Source of the DNA: Pseudomonadota bacterium
GTDB lineage: Bacteria > Bdellovibrionota_C > UBA2361 > OMII01
Direction: 5' to 3'
DNA: 64,000 nt
Assembly: GCA_041178185.1 (NCBI GenBank)
Contig: JBEGVS010000050.1
Span: 45,186-109,185, forward strand
Part shown: piece after piece, positions 1,347-49,995 of the stretch
Layout of the letters: the number at the start of each line of letters is the position of its first letter
Position numbering within the stretch: the stretch's first letter is position 1
Made by a program: the position numbers and the translations under genes
Notes under the pieces: generated by a model
The model's database searches: none
What the model saw: the letters and a program-made list of their open reading frames with translations, nothing else
What the model was told of the DNA's origin: nothing

Positions 1347-3854
1347 ATGAAGTCTCTCGTAGCTCATTCACGAATGTTAGAGGCGACCCTTGCGTTGTCG
1401 TTGACATTCGCTTCCTCGGTTAAGGCCGAGTCTCCGACAACCTCGATACCTAGTGGTCGTTCGTTGCTTTCTCGTTCGCAAGGGAATGTTGGCGTAAATG
1501 TTGCGCACACAAGTGGAGTTGATCAGATCGTTATTGATACCGGCTCAGAGCAACCAACGTATCAGGTAAAAAGACTTCAAAATCCTCCCCGTCTCGTTAT
1601 CGACCTGACCTCCACAACGATCAATTCCAACAAGAATCTCGCAATCGCCGATTTGGACCGGGTATCGAGCATTCGCATCGGGGCACAGCCAAATGCGGGA
1701 CGTATCGTGATGGATTTGGCAGAGGGCCAAGATATCTCTCATACCGTGCGTGCAGAGAAAGGCTCGATAGTGGTGAGCTTGGCCTCTGGTAAGGAAAACT
1801 CAGTCGAAACACCTGTCAAAACTGCAACGCAGCTTCAGGAGAAAGAAGTGCGCCCAGTGCAGCTTGCGAAGGCTGCATCCGCGGTTCCAGTAGAGAAAGA
1901 GAAGGGGAGCGAAGCGCCGAAGATTAAGGAGATTGCTCCTGTGAAGATAGAGACAGCTCCGTTGCGTAAAGCGGAGCCGTCAGTTGAGGAGGTTTCGGTG
2001 CTCCCTGTTGCGGCGAATCTCAACTCATCGGCTTCTCAGGTGAAGAGCGTCCGGCTCTCCTCATCAGGTGGAGCCTCTACCATGGTGTCGGTGGAGGTAG
2101 AGACGACTCCTGAGTTTACGATTGAGAGAACGGCTCCCTCGGAGTACGTCTTAACCCTCAAGAATACAACGCTTCCAGACAGTGCGTTAAGTGCAACCCT
2201 CTTCTCAGAGTCCCAGGCATCGCCGATTCGCTCCGTGCGATCGACCGTCAAAGGTCAGGACGCATTGATTCGAATATTCGCACAGCCAAATATCTACCTA
2301 ACCGCGCGCGTAGCGGGTTCACAAGTACTTGTTGAAGAGACCAGTGACCTCAAGCAGGTAGTTGATGACATGCGCGCACAGCTCGCTCCCAAGGGGACTG
2401 CAGCCCCAGAGGATAAAAAAGCTGCCGAGCCGGTTAAAGAGAAGGAGACAGCAGTGGCGGCTAAGTCCAAGCCGGCCGCGAAGTCAAAGTCAGATGAGGA
2501 GATGTCAGACAGTGAGGTTCGGGCGTTGCTTGGAGACACGGCTCGCTACACCGGGAAATTGATATCTCTCGACCTGCAAGACACCGATATCGACAATGCG
2601 CTGCGAATCATCGCAGAGGTTTCAAACTTGAATATCGTCGCAAGTGAGGATGTTCTAGGAAAAGTGACCCTCCGACTTACGGATGTTCCGTGGGACCAAG
2701 CTCTCGACGTCATCCTCAAGACACACGGTCTTGATAAGGTGCTCGAAGGTAACGTCATGCGTATCGCACCGGTGGATAAGCTTCGAGTGGAGCGGGAGTC
2801 TCTTAAGCAGGCTCAGATCGCTGACATGGAACTTGCCCAGCTCGTAGTGAAATACCTCCGTGTTAGTTACGGAAAAGCCTCAGAGCTTAAGAGTCTAGTC
2901 GAGACAGTGCTGTCAGAGCGCGGAACGGTGGCGTACGATGAGCGCTCCAATCAGCTCATCGTAAAGGATATTCAATCGGGTATCGATAACGTGACCGAAC
3001 TTGTGTCGAAGGTAGATCTTCGAACGCCGCAGGTTCTTCTTGAGACTCAGATCGTTGAGGCGAGTCGAAATCTCACGCGTGATCTCGGTAGCGAGCTTGG
3101 GTTCCAATATATCCAATCTCCATCCACAGGAAATGGTACCGGTCTGAATTTCCCATCGGCCGTCGCCGTAGGAGGAACACTGACTAACAATGGGCTTGGC
3201 GCCTCTGCCTTCCCCGCTGCGGTGTCAGCAACCGCTGGGTCCGCGGTAAGCATGTTGTTCGATAGCGCTGATGGAACAAAATCGCTCGAGCTGCGGCTAA
3301 CTCAATTGGAGTCAGAGGGGCGTGTTCGAATCGTGAGTCGCCCAGCAGTTGCTACCACAAACAACAAGCCAGCAGAGATTAAGAGTGTCGAAAAATATCG
3401 AGTACGTCTTCCGAGTGGCGGAACATCTGTCGCTACGGGACAGGGATCTACTGCAAATGGAACGGGTGGGGCAGCAACAGAAGTCATTGAGGCTGGAATC
3501 GTTCTGAACGTCACTCCTCAGGCTTCTCCTGACTACTACATCTTGCTGGATATCAAAGCGAAGTCCAGCACCTTCGGAAATTCAAGCGTAGAGGGCATTC
3601 CGAATGAAATTGAGCGCAGTGCGAGTTCGTCGGTTCTGGTGTCGAGCGGGCAGACATTTGCGCTCGGTGGAATCTACAAGCTCATGGATAAAGATGATGT
3701 GAGTGGAGTGCCCTTCCTCAAGGATATTCCAGTACTGGGAACGTTCTTCAGACGTCTCCAGACGACCAACACGGATGAAGAGCTGTTGTTCTTCATCACG
3801 CCGCGAATCGTTGAGGGCAGTTTCGATGATTCGATAATGAAGACCGCTTCCTAA
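1347..3854 (+). CDS. pilQ: Type IV pilus secretin PilQ with N-terminal AMIN domains
   Basis: Signal peptide; AMIN motif 'LQNPPRLVIDL'; 'YTGKLISLDLQDTDIDNALRIIAEVSNLNIV', 'VPWDQALDVIL'; secretin C-terminus 'GVPFLKDIPVLGTFFR...ELLFFITPRIV'. Confidence 0.95.
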   Translation: MKSLVAHSRMLEATLALSLTFASSVKAESPTTSIPSGRSLLSRSQGNVGVNVAHTSGVDQIVIDTGSEQPTYQVKRLQNPPRLVIDLTSTTINSNKNLAIADLDRVSSIRIGAQPNAGRIVMDLAEGQDISHTVRAEKGSIVVSLASGKENSVETPVKTATQLQEKEVRPVQLAKAASAVPVEKEKGSEAPKIKEIAPVKIETAPLRKAEPSVEEVSVLPVAANLNSSASQVKSVRLSSSGGASTMVSVEVETTPEFTIERTAPSEYVLTLKNTTLPDSALSATLFSESQASPIRSVRSTVKGQDALIRIFAQPNIYLTARVAGSQVLVEETSDLKQVVDDMRAQLAPKGTAAPEDKKAAEPVKEKETAVAAKSKPAAKSKSDEEMSDSEVRALLGDTARYTGKLISLDLQDTDIDNALRIIAEVSNLNIVASEDVLGKVTLRLTDVPWDQALDVILKTHGLDKVLEGNVMRIAPVDKLRVERESLKQAQIADMELAQLVVKYLRVSYGKASELKSLVETVLSERGTVAYDERSNQLIVKDIQSGIDNVTELVSKVDLRTPQVLLETQIVEASRNLTRDLGSELGFQYIQSPSTGNGTGLNFPSAVAVGGTLTNNGLGASAFPAAVSATAGSAVSMLFDSADGTKSLELRLTQLESEGRVRIVSRPAVATTNNKPAEIKSVEKYRVRLPSGGTSVATGQGSTANGTGGAATEVIEAGIVLNVTPQASPDYYILLDIKAKSSTFGNSSVEGIPNEIERSASSSVLVSSGQTFALGGIYKLMDKDDVSGVPFLKDIPVLGTFFRRLQTTNTDEELLFFITPRIVEGSFDDSIMKTAS

Positions 3855-29414: not shown

Positions 29415-30305
29415 CTACGCTGAAAGGGCTGCCTTTTGCTCAAGAGCCTCTTCGTAGATACGAGCTGGGGGCTCACGCAGATCCCATACGAGCCCGAACC
29501 AGGAGAGCACTTTGAGGGTGTAGTGTGAGATATCGACCTCCCACCAGTAGAAGCCTTGACGCTCTGAGCCAGGGTATCGGTGGTGGTTGTTATGCCATCC
29601 CTCGCCAAGGGTGATGATCGCGAGGAGGAAGCTGTTCTTGCTGTCGTCGCCCGTCTTGAATCGAGCTTTACCGAGTACGTGAGCGAGTGAATTAATGCAG
29701 AACGTGCCGTGATAGAGGAGCGTTGTGCTGATGCAGAATCCCCACGTGAACATCTGAAGTGGGCCGGTCCCAAGCTCAGGGTAGTACGCTTGAAGGAAGT
29801 AGCCGAGCCCCGTAACCCCGAGACCAAGAAGAACTGGTGGTACTATGTGGTGTCGCTCAAGGAGGCAGAGCTCTGGGAATTTGACGAGGTCTTTCACAAG
29901 CTCCCAGCGAGTTTCAACGAATTGTGTGCTTAACACCCAGCCGACATGCGCCCACCACATACCGTAGATGCGCGGCGGATGAACATCCTCTTCCGTATCA
30001 GAGAACTGATGATGATGACGGTGATGCGATGCCCACCAGATAGGTCCCTTCTGAGCTGATGTCGCGCCGATAAATGCGAGTACGAACTGGAACCACCGAC
30101 TCGTCTTATAGCTTCGGTGTGAGAAGTACCGATGATACACGCCGGTGATACCGAACATCCGGATCACGTAGAGGGCCATGCATACTGCGAACGCTACCCA
30201 GCTAAAGCCGGCCCAGATAACCAAAAGGCATCCAAGGTGGATAGCCCAGAACGCGGCTTGCTTGATGAGGTTAACGGGGTGAAGGGGATTACCGCTGGTG
30301 TTCAT
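29415..30305 (-). CDS. Membrane acyl-CoA/lipid (delta-9-type) desaturase
   Basis: His boxes HRYFSH, HHRHHH, HNNHH; 'GEGWHNNHH'. Confidence 0.93.
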   Translation of the reverse strand: MNTSGNPLHPVNLIKQAAFWAIHLGCLLVIWAGFSWVAFAVCMALYVIRMFGITGVYHRYFSHRSYKTSRWFQFVLAFIGATSAQKGPIWWASHHRHHHQFSDTEEDVHPPRIYGMWWAHVGWVLSTQFVETRWELVKDLVKFPELCLLERHHIVPPVLLGLGVTGLGYFLQAYYPELGTGPLQMFTWGFCISTTLLYHGTFCINSLAHVLGKARFKTGDDSKNSFLLAIITLGEGWHNNHHRYPGSERQGFYWWEVDISHYTLKVLSWFGLVWDLREPPARIYEEALEQKAALSA

Positions 30306-32839: not shown

Positions 32840-33034
32840 ATAGAAAAGATACGGAGAGGGAATTTCATCTTTGTAACCTAAGTCGGGGATCCCGCGCCCC
32901 GGCACGTGCACGTTTTCGCTCGAGAGAAGTTGCTGGTAAAATTTGATCTTGAGCGCAATCAGGCTATGGAGGGACGCATCAACCGGCGGATATCGAAGCT
33001 GATTCAAGAGCTACGGGCAGAGGGACGTCCATGA
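32840..33034 (+). pseudogene. Disrupted DUF4160-like toxin gene of a TA pair
   Basis: Frame reads (I)EKIRRGNFIFVT*VGDPAPRHVHVFAREKLLVKFDLERNQAMEGRINRRISKLIQELRAEGRP*; ATA at expected start; internal TAA 32879-32881; ATGA overlap with next gene. Confidence 0.7.
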
Positions 33035-33489
33035 AAATAAAGAGGGTCTTAGCTCACGAACGTAAGAGGTGCTTCATCGTGCAGTCTGGCACTAAAAGCT
33101 ACGAGGTGCCGTTCTCTACGTTTAAACACGGTCCTAATAAGCGAGACCCTCTCGTCTCCGTCTCCGTCGACAGGGATCTTGATGGGATGGGCTTTACCTT
33201 CTATCTGCGGTCTGGAAGGCAAGAAACTATGCCTCTGGATCAGGTTCTTGAGATGCACCACGACCCGGAGGTCGCGCGCAAGCGCGCCCTGTATGACCTA
33301 ACCTGCCTTGCGCAGGACGTTGTGAGAGATTCAAAGCTCACGAAGAGAGCTATCGCTCGTCGACTTGGATGTACCCCTACGCACCTGTATCGGCTGCTCG
33401 ATCAGACCTTCTACGGAAAAACGGTGGATCAGATGATTAAGCTCCTGAGCGTTCTTGGTGTAGAGCTTCGGTGGAAGGCGATCGCCTGA
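33031..33489 (+). CDS. HTH-containing putative antitoxin
   Basis: C-terminal HTH 'LTKRAIARRLGCTPTHLYRLLDQTFYGKTVDQMIKLL'; coupled to the upstream toxin-like frame. Confidence 0.75.
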   Translation: MKIKRVLAHERKRCFIVQSGTKSYEVPFSTFKHGPNKRDPLVSVSVDRDLDGMGFTFYLRSGRQETMPLDQVLEMHHDPEVARKRALYDLTCLAQDVVRDSKLTKRAIARRLGCTPTHLYRLLDQTFYGKTVDQMIKLLSVLGVELRWKAIA

Positions 33490-33642: not shown

Positions 33643-34491
33643 ATGGCAAAGAGGCCGACACAAAGACGGGGCGCTGACGGAGCATCAAAGGATGCTGACC
33701 AAGGGGTGCAGGTGGGTGGCGCACAGCTACCCTCGGCCCTGGAGCCGTGGAAAGATGAGACCCTTGCCCCCACAGAGCGGCTTAAGGCTTATAAGACATT
33801 TCTCCATGAGAAGATTGCAGCGACCCTAGCCGCGGTTGATGCCCTTCGAGGCGATGCGACGAAACAGCTTGAGATTCGTGACGCCCCGGAGACTAAGCAT
33901 TTGATGAAAGAGGCTGCTTGGGTAAGAGAGGTTTCGGCTGAGCAATTCTGCCAACGGATGGATACTCGCACTCCACTTGAGTTAGCGCAGGAGATGGTAG
34001 CGTCCTATCGGTTTGACAGGAGTACCGGTGCCTCCACCTTTAGGATCCCTGCAGGAGTCTCTGATATCGAAGCGATGATGGGGGTCAATGAGTACTTTAG
34101 AAGCTGTTTTCCGGATCAGAAGAGAGAGGCCATCTTCTCGTCGCTTTTCACGTGGTACGAGGTCGACCTACCGGTTCGTGATATGACCCAGCGGAGAGAA
34201 GTTACGATTATTGCCGTTGTGGAGGGCACCATGGGCAAAGATCGAAATTTCCAAGAAAGGGTACTCGTCGAGCAGGGATTGCACTTCGCAGACTTGCGAG
34301 ATCAAGTTTTGGCGGCTGCGCTTCATGCATGCGTTAACCGCGGAGAGGACCTGTTCCTGTCCCACTTAGTGCGTGGCTCTGTTCCTGAGTACGCGGTGCT
34401 CACCGATAAGGATCGCGGTGTCAACGTCTACTGGTACAACGACGCCAACGGCTCTAGCGGTATTGCTGCGTCCGGCTCTCCCTCCCCGTAG
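33643..34491 (+). CDS. Hypothetical two-module protein; candidate DGR-target-like protein
   Basis: N-module shared with ORF 63481, C-module shared with ORF 49048; NNC-rich 3' end. Confidence 0.8.
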   Translation: MAKRPTQRRGADGASKDADQGVQVGGAQLPSALEPWKDETLAPTERLKAYKTFLHEKIAATLAAVDALRGDATKQLEIRDAPETKHLMKEAAWVREVSAEQFCQRMDTRTPLELAQEMVASYRFDRSTGASTFRIPAGVSDIEAMMGVNEYFRSCFPDQKREAIFSSLFTWYEVDLPVRDMTQRREVTIIAVVEGTMGKDRNFQERVLVEQGLHFADLRDQVLAAALHACVNRGEDLFLSHLVRGSVPEYAVLTDKDRGVNVYWYNDANGSSGIAASGSPSP

Positions 34492-34526
34492 TAAAAAAGC
34501 GATCATTGGTGCTTGGTTCATTGATC

Positions 34527-34542
34527 CCCTCCGTCAGGAGGG
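34527..34542 (+). other. GC-rich hairpin downstream of the VR-like 3' end
   Basis: ccctcc-gtca-ggaggg, 35 nt after the stop, without a T-tail. Confidence 0.55.
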
Positions 34543-34722
34543 AACGAACCCTTTGATCCGCAGTGCTTCGTCCGAAATTGCTGAGATTTCGGTCGCAGGA
34601 TCGTTCATTTCGGACCGGGTGACTATCGAGAAAGGGAGCAAGGATGCAGAGCGAGATTCCGAGAATCACTCTTTAGCTTGAGGACCTGCCCTCTTTTGGT
34701 ATCGTCACTACCAGAGAGTCTT

Positions 34723-48638: not shown

Positions 48639-48881
48639 AGTGCGATGGTGAACGATAGCTCATCGTCATAGGGAGCACCCGATCGACGACCGCTGTCATT
48701 CCACTTTAAGTGGAATAGGCTCGAAAAAAGCTCCGGCTCGACCACCTCGATATTTCAACTATTTGCACGAGGCTCTCCAGGTATGATCACACCTGATTCG
48801 GTAACTTATTTGAGATCTCAAGCACGCCGTGCCCTGCGCAAAATGAGCAAATTAGGCCAATTCTGTTACTATCTCTCAGTC

Positions 48882-49046
48882 ATGCGCAGCGACTCACAAA
48901 CCGAAGAACAACGAGCGAAAGAGGAGCTTCTCAAGCTCCTGCAGGCCGAGATTGCGGCTCTGTTGTGCGCGGATCATGTACGTGAGGATGAGAAACTATC
49001 TCGAATGAAGCTAGCGCAAGCGATTATTGAAAAAGGAGAGGTCTAG
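48882..49046 (+). CDS. Small hypothetical helical protein
   Basis: 54-aa helical ORF ending 1 nt before ATG 49048; its 3' end supplies a GGAGAG RBS. Confidence 0.4.
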   Translation: MRSDSQTEEQRAKEELLKLLQAEIAALLCADHVREDEKLSRMKLAQAIIEKGEV

Positions 49047-49047
49047 G

Positions 49048-49995
49048 ATGAACAAGTTAGCCCCGATACGAGATGCAGTTGTTAAAATAGGAACTATATC
49101 CCAAACCCTCCACTCTCAGATGGCGTTACATCTTTACGCGTCTGCAGAAGAGAAGATGGGAGTGCTCCCAGTGTCTGCTATCGCGCAGCGGTTGGAGCTC
49201 GCTCGTAAAGCGCTTAACGGTGTTCTGCCTGAGCCCTCAGTAGAAAGCAGAGGGGAAGGGGATGCGCAGAGCAAGGTCCGAAGGGCCCTCCCCGATATAG
49301 TGCGGCTAACTACCTCGCTGTACTCCCAGGCCGCATCGAATACCTATGGTACCCAGAACGACGAAATGGCCCTCTCAACGCAGGAGATAAAGCACCGATT
49401 GGGATTAGCAAGTGATGTGCTCCACGGACGTGCTCCTCTGATGACAGCTGGCCTAATGGTTGAATCGTATGGGTTTGATCCTCAGACGGGGATATCGACC
49501 TTTACGATTCCGGCAGGTGTAAGTGACGATGAAGCGATGCGTGCGATCAACGCGTACTTTAGGACGTACCATTCAATCCCTTGGGGCATGCCCTTCAGGG
49601 AAGCAATTACGGCGGAGGTCTTTGAATGGTTCGCAAGTCTTGCGGATAGCTCAAACGGACTTGAGCCACTACCTTGCCGAGAGCACGGGACGGCTCGGCA
49701 CATAGCCATTCATTCAATCGCCAAGGGAACGATAGGACTAGACCTTCAGGCACAATCCGAGATGCTTCAAAAGAGCTCCCTTGTGTTCGCAGATCCTCGA
49801 GACCTCGCGATAGCCTCCGGTCTTCACGCCTGTAAGCGTAACGGCCAGGACCTATTTGCGGATCAAGAGGTGCGCTGTTCGCGCAGCGGTGTCGTTTTGT
49901 ACTGCGATTGGCGGGGTTTGCGGGTACGGTGCAACGTAGCCGACGACGCAAAAAACCTTGCTGCTGCAGGAACGCCGATAACGGTTAGCGAATAA
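49048..49995 (+). CDS. Hypothetical protein; C-terminal module paralogous to ORF 33643
   Basis: 'YGFDPQTGISTFTIPAGVSDDEAM', 'FADPRDLAIASGLHACKRNGQDLF'. Confidence 0.8.
   Translation: MNKLAPIRDAVVKIGTISQTLHSQMALHLYASAEEKMGVLPVSAIAQRLELARKALNGVLPEPSVESRGEGDAQSKVRRALPDIVRLTTSLYSQAASNTYGTQNDEMALSTQEIKHRLGLASDVLHGRAPLMTAGLMVESYGFDPQTGISTFTIPAGVSDDEAMRAINAYFRTYHSIPWGMPFREAITAEVFEWFASLADSSNGLEPLPCREHGTARHIAIHSIAKGTIGLDLQAQSEMLQKSSLVFADPRDLAIASGLHACKRNGQDLFADQEVRCSRSGVVLYCDWRGLRVRCNVADDAKNLAAAGTPITVSE

Follow-up and report, generated by a model that had tools for sequence, protein, structure and literature searches.

A probable diversity-generating retroelement variable region in an unannotated gene family of freshwater Bdellovibrionota-like bacteria

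The subject of this analysis is the 3' end of an open reading frame (ORF) at positions 33643-34491 of a 64,000-nucleotide stretch of contig JBEGVS010000050.1 (assembly GCA_041178185.1, positions 45,186 to 109,185 of the forward strand), which is called the window here. Sequence comparison makes it highly likely that the last ~115 bases of this ORF are a real variable region (VR) of a diversity-generating retroelement (DGR), with an end resembling an initiation of mutagenic homing (IMH) sequence and a GC-rich hairpin downstream. A VR with a cis-acting stem-loop had been claimed in an initial annotation made from the letters of the window alone, and the claim is now supported by the template repeats (TRs) of related loci, by an adenine bias in the differences from these TRs, by synonymous identity, and by the conservation of the hairpin and its neighbouring repeats. 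The related loci show every defining DGR feature that was tested, while the window shows the recipient-side features and not the donor-side ones. Related loci and proteins are designated by L and P numbers, respectively. The features of the target gene are as follows.

33643..34491, forward strand: target gene (ORF), 282 residues; the protein has a disordered N-terminus and a helical region, and its C-terminal alpha/beta domain (residues ~108-282) bears the probable VR.
34375..34488, forward strand: probable VR, homologous to the TRs of related DGR cassettes (blastn with the L010 TR).
34399..34461, forward strand: predicted hypervariable core, codons L253-G273 (LTDKDRGVNVYWYNDANGSSG), from a codon-by-codon alignment to TR and VRs.
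34465..34488, forward strand: GC-rich terminal segment of the VR (GCTGCGTCCGGCTCTCCCTCCCCG), which codes for the invariant AASGSPSP and lies at the 3' limit of TR-VR homology, a boundary that resembles an IMH.
34492..34526, forward strand: conserved non-coding spacer following the stop codon, with TTGATC/TTGG-type repeats that are partly degraded relative to the related loci (from alignment).
34527..34542, no strand assigned: GC-rich inverted repeat CCCTCC-GTCA-GGAGGG, the likely counterpart of the hairpin or cruciform downstream of the IMH in known DGR targets.

Codon signature and cis elements

The first indication of a VR was a run of codons at 34414-34458, which is in the frame of the ORF (an offset of 771 = 257x3) and reads cgc ggt gtc aac gtc tac tgg tac aac gac gcc aac ggc tct agc. 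Twelve of these 15 codons end in C and none ends in A, as the initial annotation had stated; its list named the 12 C-ending codons only and was correct. The peptide that it quoted was rightly placed at the C-terminus of the protein, with its ending misquoted, since the protein ends in ...AASGSPSP* and not in ...SGSP*. Given the exact peptide and the codon usage of the window, 5.5 C-ending codons are expected in this run and P(>=12) is ~2e-4, so the bias is more than a reflection of richness in Asn, Tyr, and Asp.

A run of this kind could also arise by chance, or from the ordinary codon and amino-acid composition of a conserved C-terminal motif with no history of hypermutation. The region was chosen post hoc from 64 kb, the third position of Asn, Tyr, and Asp codons can only be C or T, and ORF 29415-30305 also reaches 12 of 15; in the 43 long ORFs of the window, at least 12 C-ending codons are found in four of 15,826 15-codon windows, one of them here and three, overlapping, in that ORF. 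Against this stand the probability given above, the fact that the homologous columns are the most variable of the family, and the alignment of the region to bona fide TRs, which together make chance or composition extremely unlikely.

The hairpin described in the initial annotation is exact, with CCCTCC at 34527-34532, the loop GTCA at 34533-34536, and GGAGGG at 34537-34542 (DNA dG -6.3 kcal/mol). It is conserved in L001, L010, L011, L013, L015, L016, L017, L019, and L020, with varying loops, and its stem is 6 bp long (dG -6.3) in the window versus 7-8 bp (-7.3 to -10.2) in the relatives. The periodic ttgg/ttga motifs of the initial annotation are also real, and homologous loci keep them as TTGATC-type repeats. 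These TTGATC/TTGG repeats, which contain GATC, follow the stop codon in all loci, including L010, L015, L017, and L032, and L032 retains them though its GC hairpin is missing. The repeats may be a separate cis element, for example, a protein-binding site. A short GC-rich palindromic insert (…CCGCCTTCGCGAACGGTACGGCGG…), resembling repetitive extragenic palindromes or miniature inverted-repeat transposable elements, has been observed between the VR end and the hairpin in L001 (~1000-1040), L012, and L023.

Homology of the variable region to template repeats

Comparison of the L010 TR with the window by blastn gives a single match, at 34375-34488, with 75% identity over 114 nt, in frame at the 3' end of the ORF. 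The mismatches fall at 16 of the 29 sites where the TR has adenine and at 12 of the 84 other sites (Fisher p=3e-5). Over the two nearest TR types, the window VR differs at 15-17 of 29-31 adenine sites and at 11-14 of 84-87 others, and it has 23 non-adenine mismatches to the diverged TR of L032. The core at 34399-34461 comprises the positions opposite AAC, AAT, or other A-containing codons of the TR, and the C-ending run falls within it; its columns are scrambled between otherwise near-identical proteins. The DNA of 34465-34488 is nearly invariant across loci and in all TRs. In L010 and L032, the homology between TR and VR stops just past the counterpart of this segment. The TR copies run on into unrelated sequence.

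The synonymous sites serve as a clock-like test of this homology and are more informative. At four-fold degenerate third positions of identical amino acids, the window and L010, L015, L017, and L027 are 82-89% identical in the VR and 17-33% identical in the gene body, where these sites are saturated with substitutions. Synonymous divergence is ~12-18% between the window VR and the TR lineage, compared with 34% between the window gene and its closest homologue. The excess of four-fold identity in the VR over the gene body indicates that the VR DNA recently shared an ancestor with the TR lineage, and recent ancestry confined to the VR is the outcome expected of overwriting by TR-derived cDNA.

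The same result could be obtained if the gene lineage had never been a DGR target and had acquired its 3' end and hairpin by recombination or horizontal transfer from a homologue diversified elsewhere. That the VR is far closer to distant homologues than the gene body is would follow from such a transfer, and taken alone it proves a recent foreign origin and not the route. Recombination donors also exist, since the family is multi-copy (at least five paralogs in one genome, RL518) and occurs on plasmids. However, the limits of the similarity coincide with those of TR-VR homology in the cassettes, the downstream cis elements aside. Furthermore, the differences from the TR are concentrated at adenines and no sampled VR is matched, a pattern of independent homing and not of VR copying. 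Transfer from a diversified homologue is consequently considered improbable, and writing from a TR is the preferred account of the VR.

Complete cassettes in related loci

The contig of one family protein, P0008 (L010), carries a bAvd gene downstream of the target and a 118-nt direct copy of the 3' end of the gene, 600 bp downstream. The VR of this locus (1998-2115) and its TR (2598-2715) differ by 18 mismatches, all at TR adenines, and against this TR the VR of L011, which is allelic, has 22 mismatches, again all at adenines. A degenerate VR/TR pattern scan of genome and metagenome contig collections, both of which exclude the window's own contig, has identified further loci, which come from Bdellovibrionota or "Pseudomonadota" metagenome-assembled genomes (MAGs) and from lake metagenomes. 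These include pairs of VR and TR in L014, L016, and L017, a TR without this target in L018, tandem targets in L023, and solo VRs in L012, L013, L015, and L019-L021, two of them on long contigs (61 kb for L012 and 328 kb for L021). The numbers of adenine and other mismatches between VR and TR are 18 and 1 in L014, 20 and 0 in L016, 22 and 0 in L017, and 15 and 1 in L032.

The Avd proteins of the relatives belong to PF22296 and score 81.7 bits with the NCBIfam model DivGenRetAVD (NF033474; cut-off 80). Homology searches with Avd lead to contigs in which an RVT_1 gene lies back-to-back with avd. The reverse transcriptase (RT) of the relatives has an RVT_1 domain with the motifs IGNLTSQ and FADD (L028, L032); DGR RTs are characterised by the (I/V/L)GxxxSQ motif (PMC3521204). 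When the target is on the forward strand, the order of the cassette is a small ORF, the target with its VR, ~550-600 bp from VR to TR, the TR, avd on the opposite strand, and the RT. The cassette is compact in L032 (GCA_002058965.1, 9.9 kb).

Gene conversion among paralogs, slippage, or diversifying point mutation could in principle generate variability in the family in place of retrohoming, and the presence of several paralogs per genome and of tandem targets in L023 would provide the substrate. Such processes are very unlikely to account for the data, given that VR and TR differ at template adenines, with 0-1 other differences, in six independent cassettes, a spectrum that no other process produces, and that Avd and an SQ-motif RT are adjacent.

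The complete cassettes adjoin genes for a MobA/MobL relaxase, TraD/TraG, ParA, a resolvase or integrase, and toxin-antitoxin pairs, and L027 also has a Trb/VirB type IV secretion system. From their gene content, the complete cassettes are assigned to plasmid-like elements or elements like integrative and conjugative elements (ICEs), mobilisable or conjugative. The pattern scan of the IMG/VR viral contigs gave 0 matches.

Several loci depart from the intact arrangement. In L018, a locus in synteny with L017, the TR, avd, and the N-terminus of the RT are intact, and the position of the target is taken by an unrelated 207-aa gene (1651-2274, reverse strand); this arrangement suggests that the target was replaced or the cassette captured. 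L016 is a degraded cassette: over the 7 kb past its TR, there is a truncated avd and, besides it, nothing but DUF3024, AAA/DUF4143, and AbiE genes. Insertion sequence elements also interrupt cassettes, namely an IS21 IstB gene downstream of the target in L011 (1963-4096) and an rve-type transposase gene inside the RT in L030 (2864-4050), so the cassette must often be disrupted in nature.

The target family and its hypervariability

The target protein has no sequence match in Pfam, NCBIfam, or the PDB. A word-indexed search finds 17 relatives, all of them hypothetical proteins from uncultured "Pseudomonadota/Bdellovibrionota" MAGs, and a profile search extends the family to 184 clusters at 50% identity. 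No match to the target was found by tblastn among the curated PLSDB plasmids and GenBank phages. The family alignment has a conserved core with the motifs SYRFD, IPAGVSD, AAALHAC, and VRGSVPGFAL. The core is followed by ~22 residues that are almost unconserved save for an internal G-V-x-V, and then by the invariant terminus AASGSPSP(E).

Hypervariability of this stretch has been measured in the relatives, the window's own lineage (P0001) being one sequence on one contig. Among seven proteins at least 90% identical to P0008, pairs of residues differ in 63.5% of cases inside the variable stretch and in 2.4% outside it. Residues inside the stretch of this cluster fall within the set that NNC codons can encode in 99% of cases. 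The same confined variability is found in the clusters of P0010, P0011, and P0012.

Predicted structure of the scaffold

The AlphaFold2 model of the full-length protein has a pLDDT of 83, and residues 108-282 reach a pLDDT of 95.6 with a pTM of 0.92. The variable residues form a C-terminal beta-hairpin and loop in the model. Foldseek searches with both models against the PDB returned nothing with E<0.2, and the full-length model returned nothing with E<0.3 against BFVD. Below these thresholds, recurrent matches are seen only for the superfamily of C-type lectin-like domains (CTLDs) and Link domains, namely LYVE-1 (TM 0.42-0.45 on target), the Link domain of TSG-6, aggrecan G1, the CTLDs of MR and DEC205, and TvpA, whose structure 2y3c is a non-significant match (E=3.2, 42 columns).

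The order of secondary-structure elements in the model (beta-beta-alpha-alpha-beta, two extra helices, and four strands) would be compatible with a CTLD/Link-type fold. Judging from the model, the VR domain would be either a very divergent C-type lectin (CLec) domain or something else. In a large survey, annotated VR regions were systematically CLec folds (PMC8144416), and a VR domain that is modelled with confidence and lacks a significant match therefore helps to test the generality of this rule. A catalytic role for the invariant His228 and the nearly invariant Cys230 (LHAC) has been considered and set aside, since there is no structural or family match for any enzyme class.

Search for the donor

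The DNA examined for a donor consists of the window, 8,654 bp upstream (L024), and 9,198 bp downstream (L025), together 81,852 bp; L024 and L025 are 100% identical to the window in the overlap. A TR-like copy in the window was sought on both strands by low-stringency blastn and by an adenine-tolerant sliding comparison, and none was found. Pfam found no RVT_1 domain in 38 ORFs of the window, including all non-overlapping ORFs of at least 280 aa. The initial annotation, which had seen no RT, Avd, or TR in the window, is borne out by blastn, tblastn, and Pfam; it had also proposed a search for a DGR-type RT, and tblastn found none in the window and its flanks.

The surroundings of the target in the window are ordinary chromosomal genes, namely accC, dnaX, fpg, H+-PPase, hisS, rsmB, and a secretin gene. 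Homologous VR-bearing genes have been found amid chromosomal housekeeping genes in the window, L002, and L031. As the donors in the relatives are plasmid-borne, their absence near the window gene is expected whether or not the VR is still being rewritten. There are precedents among DGRs for targets lying over 100 kb away from the RT and for an avd-TR-brt unit acting in trans (PMC5758913).

On the same contig, ~4-5 kb upstream of the window start, L024 3334-4947 encodes a 537-aa protein with a formylglycine-generating enzyme (FGE)-sulfatase domain, a classic DGR-target fold. This gene has been rejected as a candidate target, with no TR-like direct repeat in the 8.7 kb examined.

Is the variable region still rewritten?

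Two states of the window VR have been weighed. A recently orphaned VR that is beginning to drift is the slightly favoured reading. An active remote target, served in trans by an unsampled cognate TR, is a serious contender at a little below even chances, which leaves only a small share for anything else. Of the remote, trans-served target proposed in the initial annotation, the part that stands is the DGR target; trans service is less certain, with the donor absent from 81.9 kb and the count of non-adenine mismatches the highest observed.

Both the sequence of the VR and its surroundings weigh against current rewriting. No TR, Avd, or DGR RT is present in the 81,852 bp by blastn, tblastn, Pfam, or precomputed annotation. 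With 11-12 non-adenine mismatches to the nearest sampled TRs, the window VR exceeds all others among the 14 checked (0-1 in VRs lying in cis to a TR and 2-7 in the other solo VRs), and at seven positions it fits none of the TRs sampled. Some of the mismatches alter scaffold residues that do not vary elsewhere (PGFAL to PEYAV). In comparison with the relatives, the stem of the hairpin falls 1-2 bp short, the first of the TTGATC repeats have decayed, and translation ends 2-3 codons sooner. The window lineage is represented by one sequence on one contig.

Other members of the family also show that a target can become static. P0013 is identical on at least eight contigs from several samples, with only 50% four-fold identity in its VR region, and the cluster of P0017 is invariant. 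The family member P0007 at L031 9841-10473 (JGI 3300043449, the sample also of L001 and L025) has a strongly decayed VR, with 65% identity to the TR and no hairpin, so family members can be decayed. The genome RL518, a MAG, has at least five family paralogs (locus tags 447, 477, 502, 1936, 2068), and these together with L031 suggest a series of retired targets in one genome or community.

In favour of recent or ongoing writing, the reading frame is intact, the C-ending codon signature is mostly retained, and the synonymous divergence of the VR from the TR lineage is below that of the gene from its closest homologue. An unsampled cognate TR is also plausible because TR lineages differ from one another at up to 23 non-adenine positions.

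Paralog and neighbouring genes

Two further features of the window are related to the target family.

49048..49995, forward strand: paralog of the target family (ATG at 49048, stop at 49995; 41% identity across the C-terminal 185 residues) whose C-terminus is fixed and not diversified.
48843..49046, forward strand: small ORF, 67 aa (…EELLKLLQAEIAALLCADHVREDEKLSRMKLAQAIIEKGEV*), directly upstream of the paralog and homologous to ORFs that precede DGR targets elsewhere.

The C-terminus of the paralog is conserved in its own subfamily (P0146, P0170, P0171), and this conservation among orthologues implies that it is not diversified. The paralog has no TR match by blastn, and its downstream sequence has no hairpin. 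The initial annotation had suggested that it may be a retired target; the absence of diversification holds, with a conserved C-terminus and no similarity to a TR, and a retired target and a gene that was never diversified look alike here.

The DNA at 48917-49051 is 72-75% identical to the stretch upstream of the targets in L013, L017, and L023. ORFs of 51 to 78 aa precede the targets in L002, L017, and L032, and the 78-aa ORF of L017 has a matching C-terminal peptide. This small upstream ORF may be a conserved partner of the target family; no ORF of this type is present upstream of 33643. Just upstream of the target, the 152-aa product of 33031-33489 has a weak HTH_37-type domain. The cassettes of L010, L028, and L033 are flanked by Gp49/HTH_37 (HigBA-like) pairs. 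The gene in the window may be left over from a mobile context common to these loci, or its position may be coincidental.

Comparison with known systems

The closest parallel for the arrangement of the VR is the DGR of Bordetella phage BPP-1 (mtd, avd, TR, brt). In both, the VR occupies the very 3' end of the target ORF, the TR differs from it at adenines only, and AAC codons are converted to NNC codons. The homology likewise ends in GC-rich sequence in both, and beyond it lies an inverted repeat, also GC-rich, with a loop of 3-4 nt; the relatives also share Avd and an SQ-motif RT with BPP-1. The IMH, and the GC-rich inverted repeat downstream of it in DGR targets, have been described previously (PMC5758913). 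Unlike BPP-1, the cassette of the relatives is not phage-borne (no match in phage records or IMG/VR), its avd is on the opposite strand between TR and RT, and its target has no recognisable Mtd or CLec domain. The window, moreover, holds the recipient end only.

The Treponema denticola DGR, with TvpA and as many as seven targets that are remote or not adjacent, and other cellular DGRs of "Lineage 4" have one donor and several paralogous targets, some far from the RT. The present family resembles them in its tandem and multi-copy targets and in having solo VRs on long contigs. TvpA differs in being an FGE-type CLec protein, and the donor of the window was not found in 81.9 kb. In the Legionella pneumophila LdtA DGR, which is on an ICE, and in the ICE-borne DGRs of Bacteroides, the donor cassette is on a transmissible element, as in the relatives; DGRs on conjugative elements have been described (PMC5758913; bioRxiv 10.1101/2024.11.15.621889). 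There the target travels with the element, whereas here chromosomal VR-bearing genes exist besides the plasmid-borne target, and no lipoprotein or pilin features were seen. In its working, the system resembles the BPP-1, Treponema, and Legionella DGRs. New are the unannotated target family, the inverted avd, and a plasmid-borne donor accompanied by solo chromosomal VRs in graded decay.

Proposed mechanism

The mechanism below is documented in the relatives, and for the window gene we infer it. The TR would be transcribed, and the DGR RT with Avd would copy it into cDNA, misincorporating opposite template adenines. This cDNA would then replace the VR, turning the AAC and AAT codons of the TR into NNC and NNT codons. 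About 20 residues of the C-terminal beta-hairpin and loop would thereby be randomised, with the scaffold (G-V-x-V, AASGSPSP) left intact. Very probably, the VR DNA of the window was copied from a TR of this lineage at a time when the host genes were already divergent, the window containing only the recipient end of the process.

A broader and tentative proposal, which we regard as possible and less than probable, is that of a roving diversifier. Small plasmids of freshwater Bdellovibrionota-like bacteria, mobilisable or conjugative, would carry a DGR that, once in a new host, rewrites the resident chromosomal paralogs of the target family in trans, and the window gene would be one docking site. 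The scaffold would then be a new fold or a CLec domain that has diverged beyond recognition.

Implications

The VR could be recognised in raw sequence from a run of NNC codons and a hairpin, with no retroelement nearby. An unannotated family of about 184 clusters at 50% identity has been identified as DGR targets in uncultured, probably predatory, freshwater bacteria. If true, a roving diversifier would explain why VR DNA and non-coding cis elements hardly differ between genes in which substitutions have reached saturation in the gene body. It would also explain the presence of solo VRs in varied states of decay after plasmid loss. The plasmid-borne donor and the solo chromosomal VRs in graded decay form a natural series on target recruitment, service in trans, and retirement.

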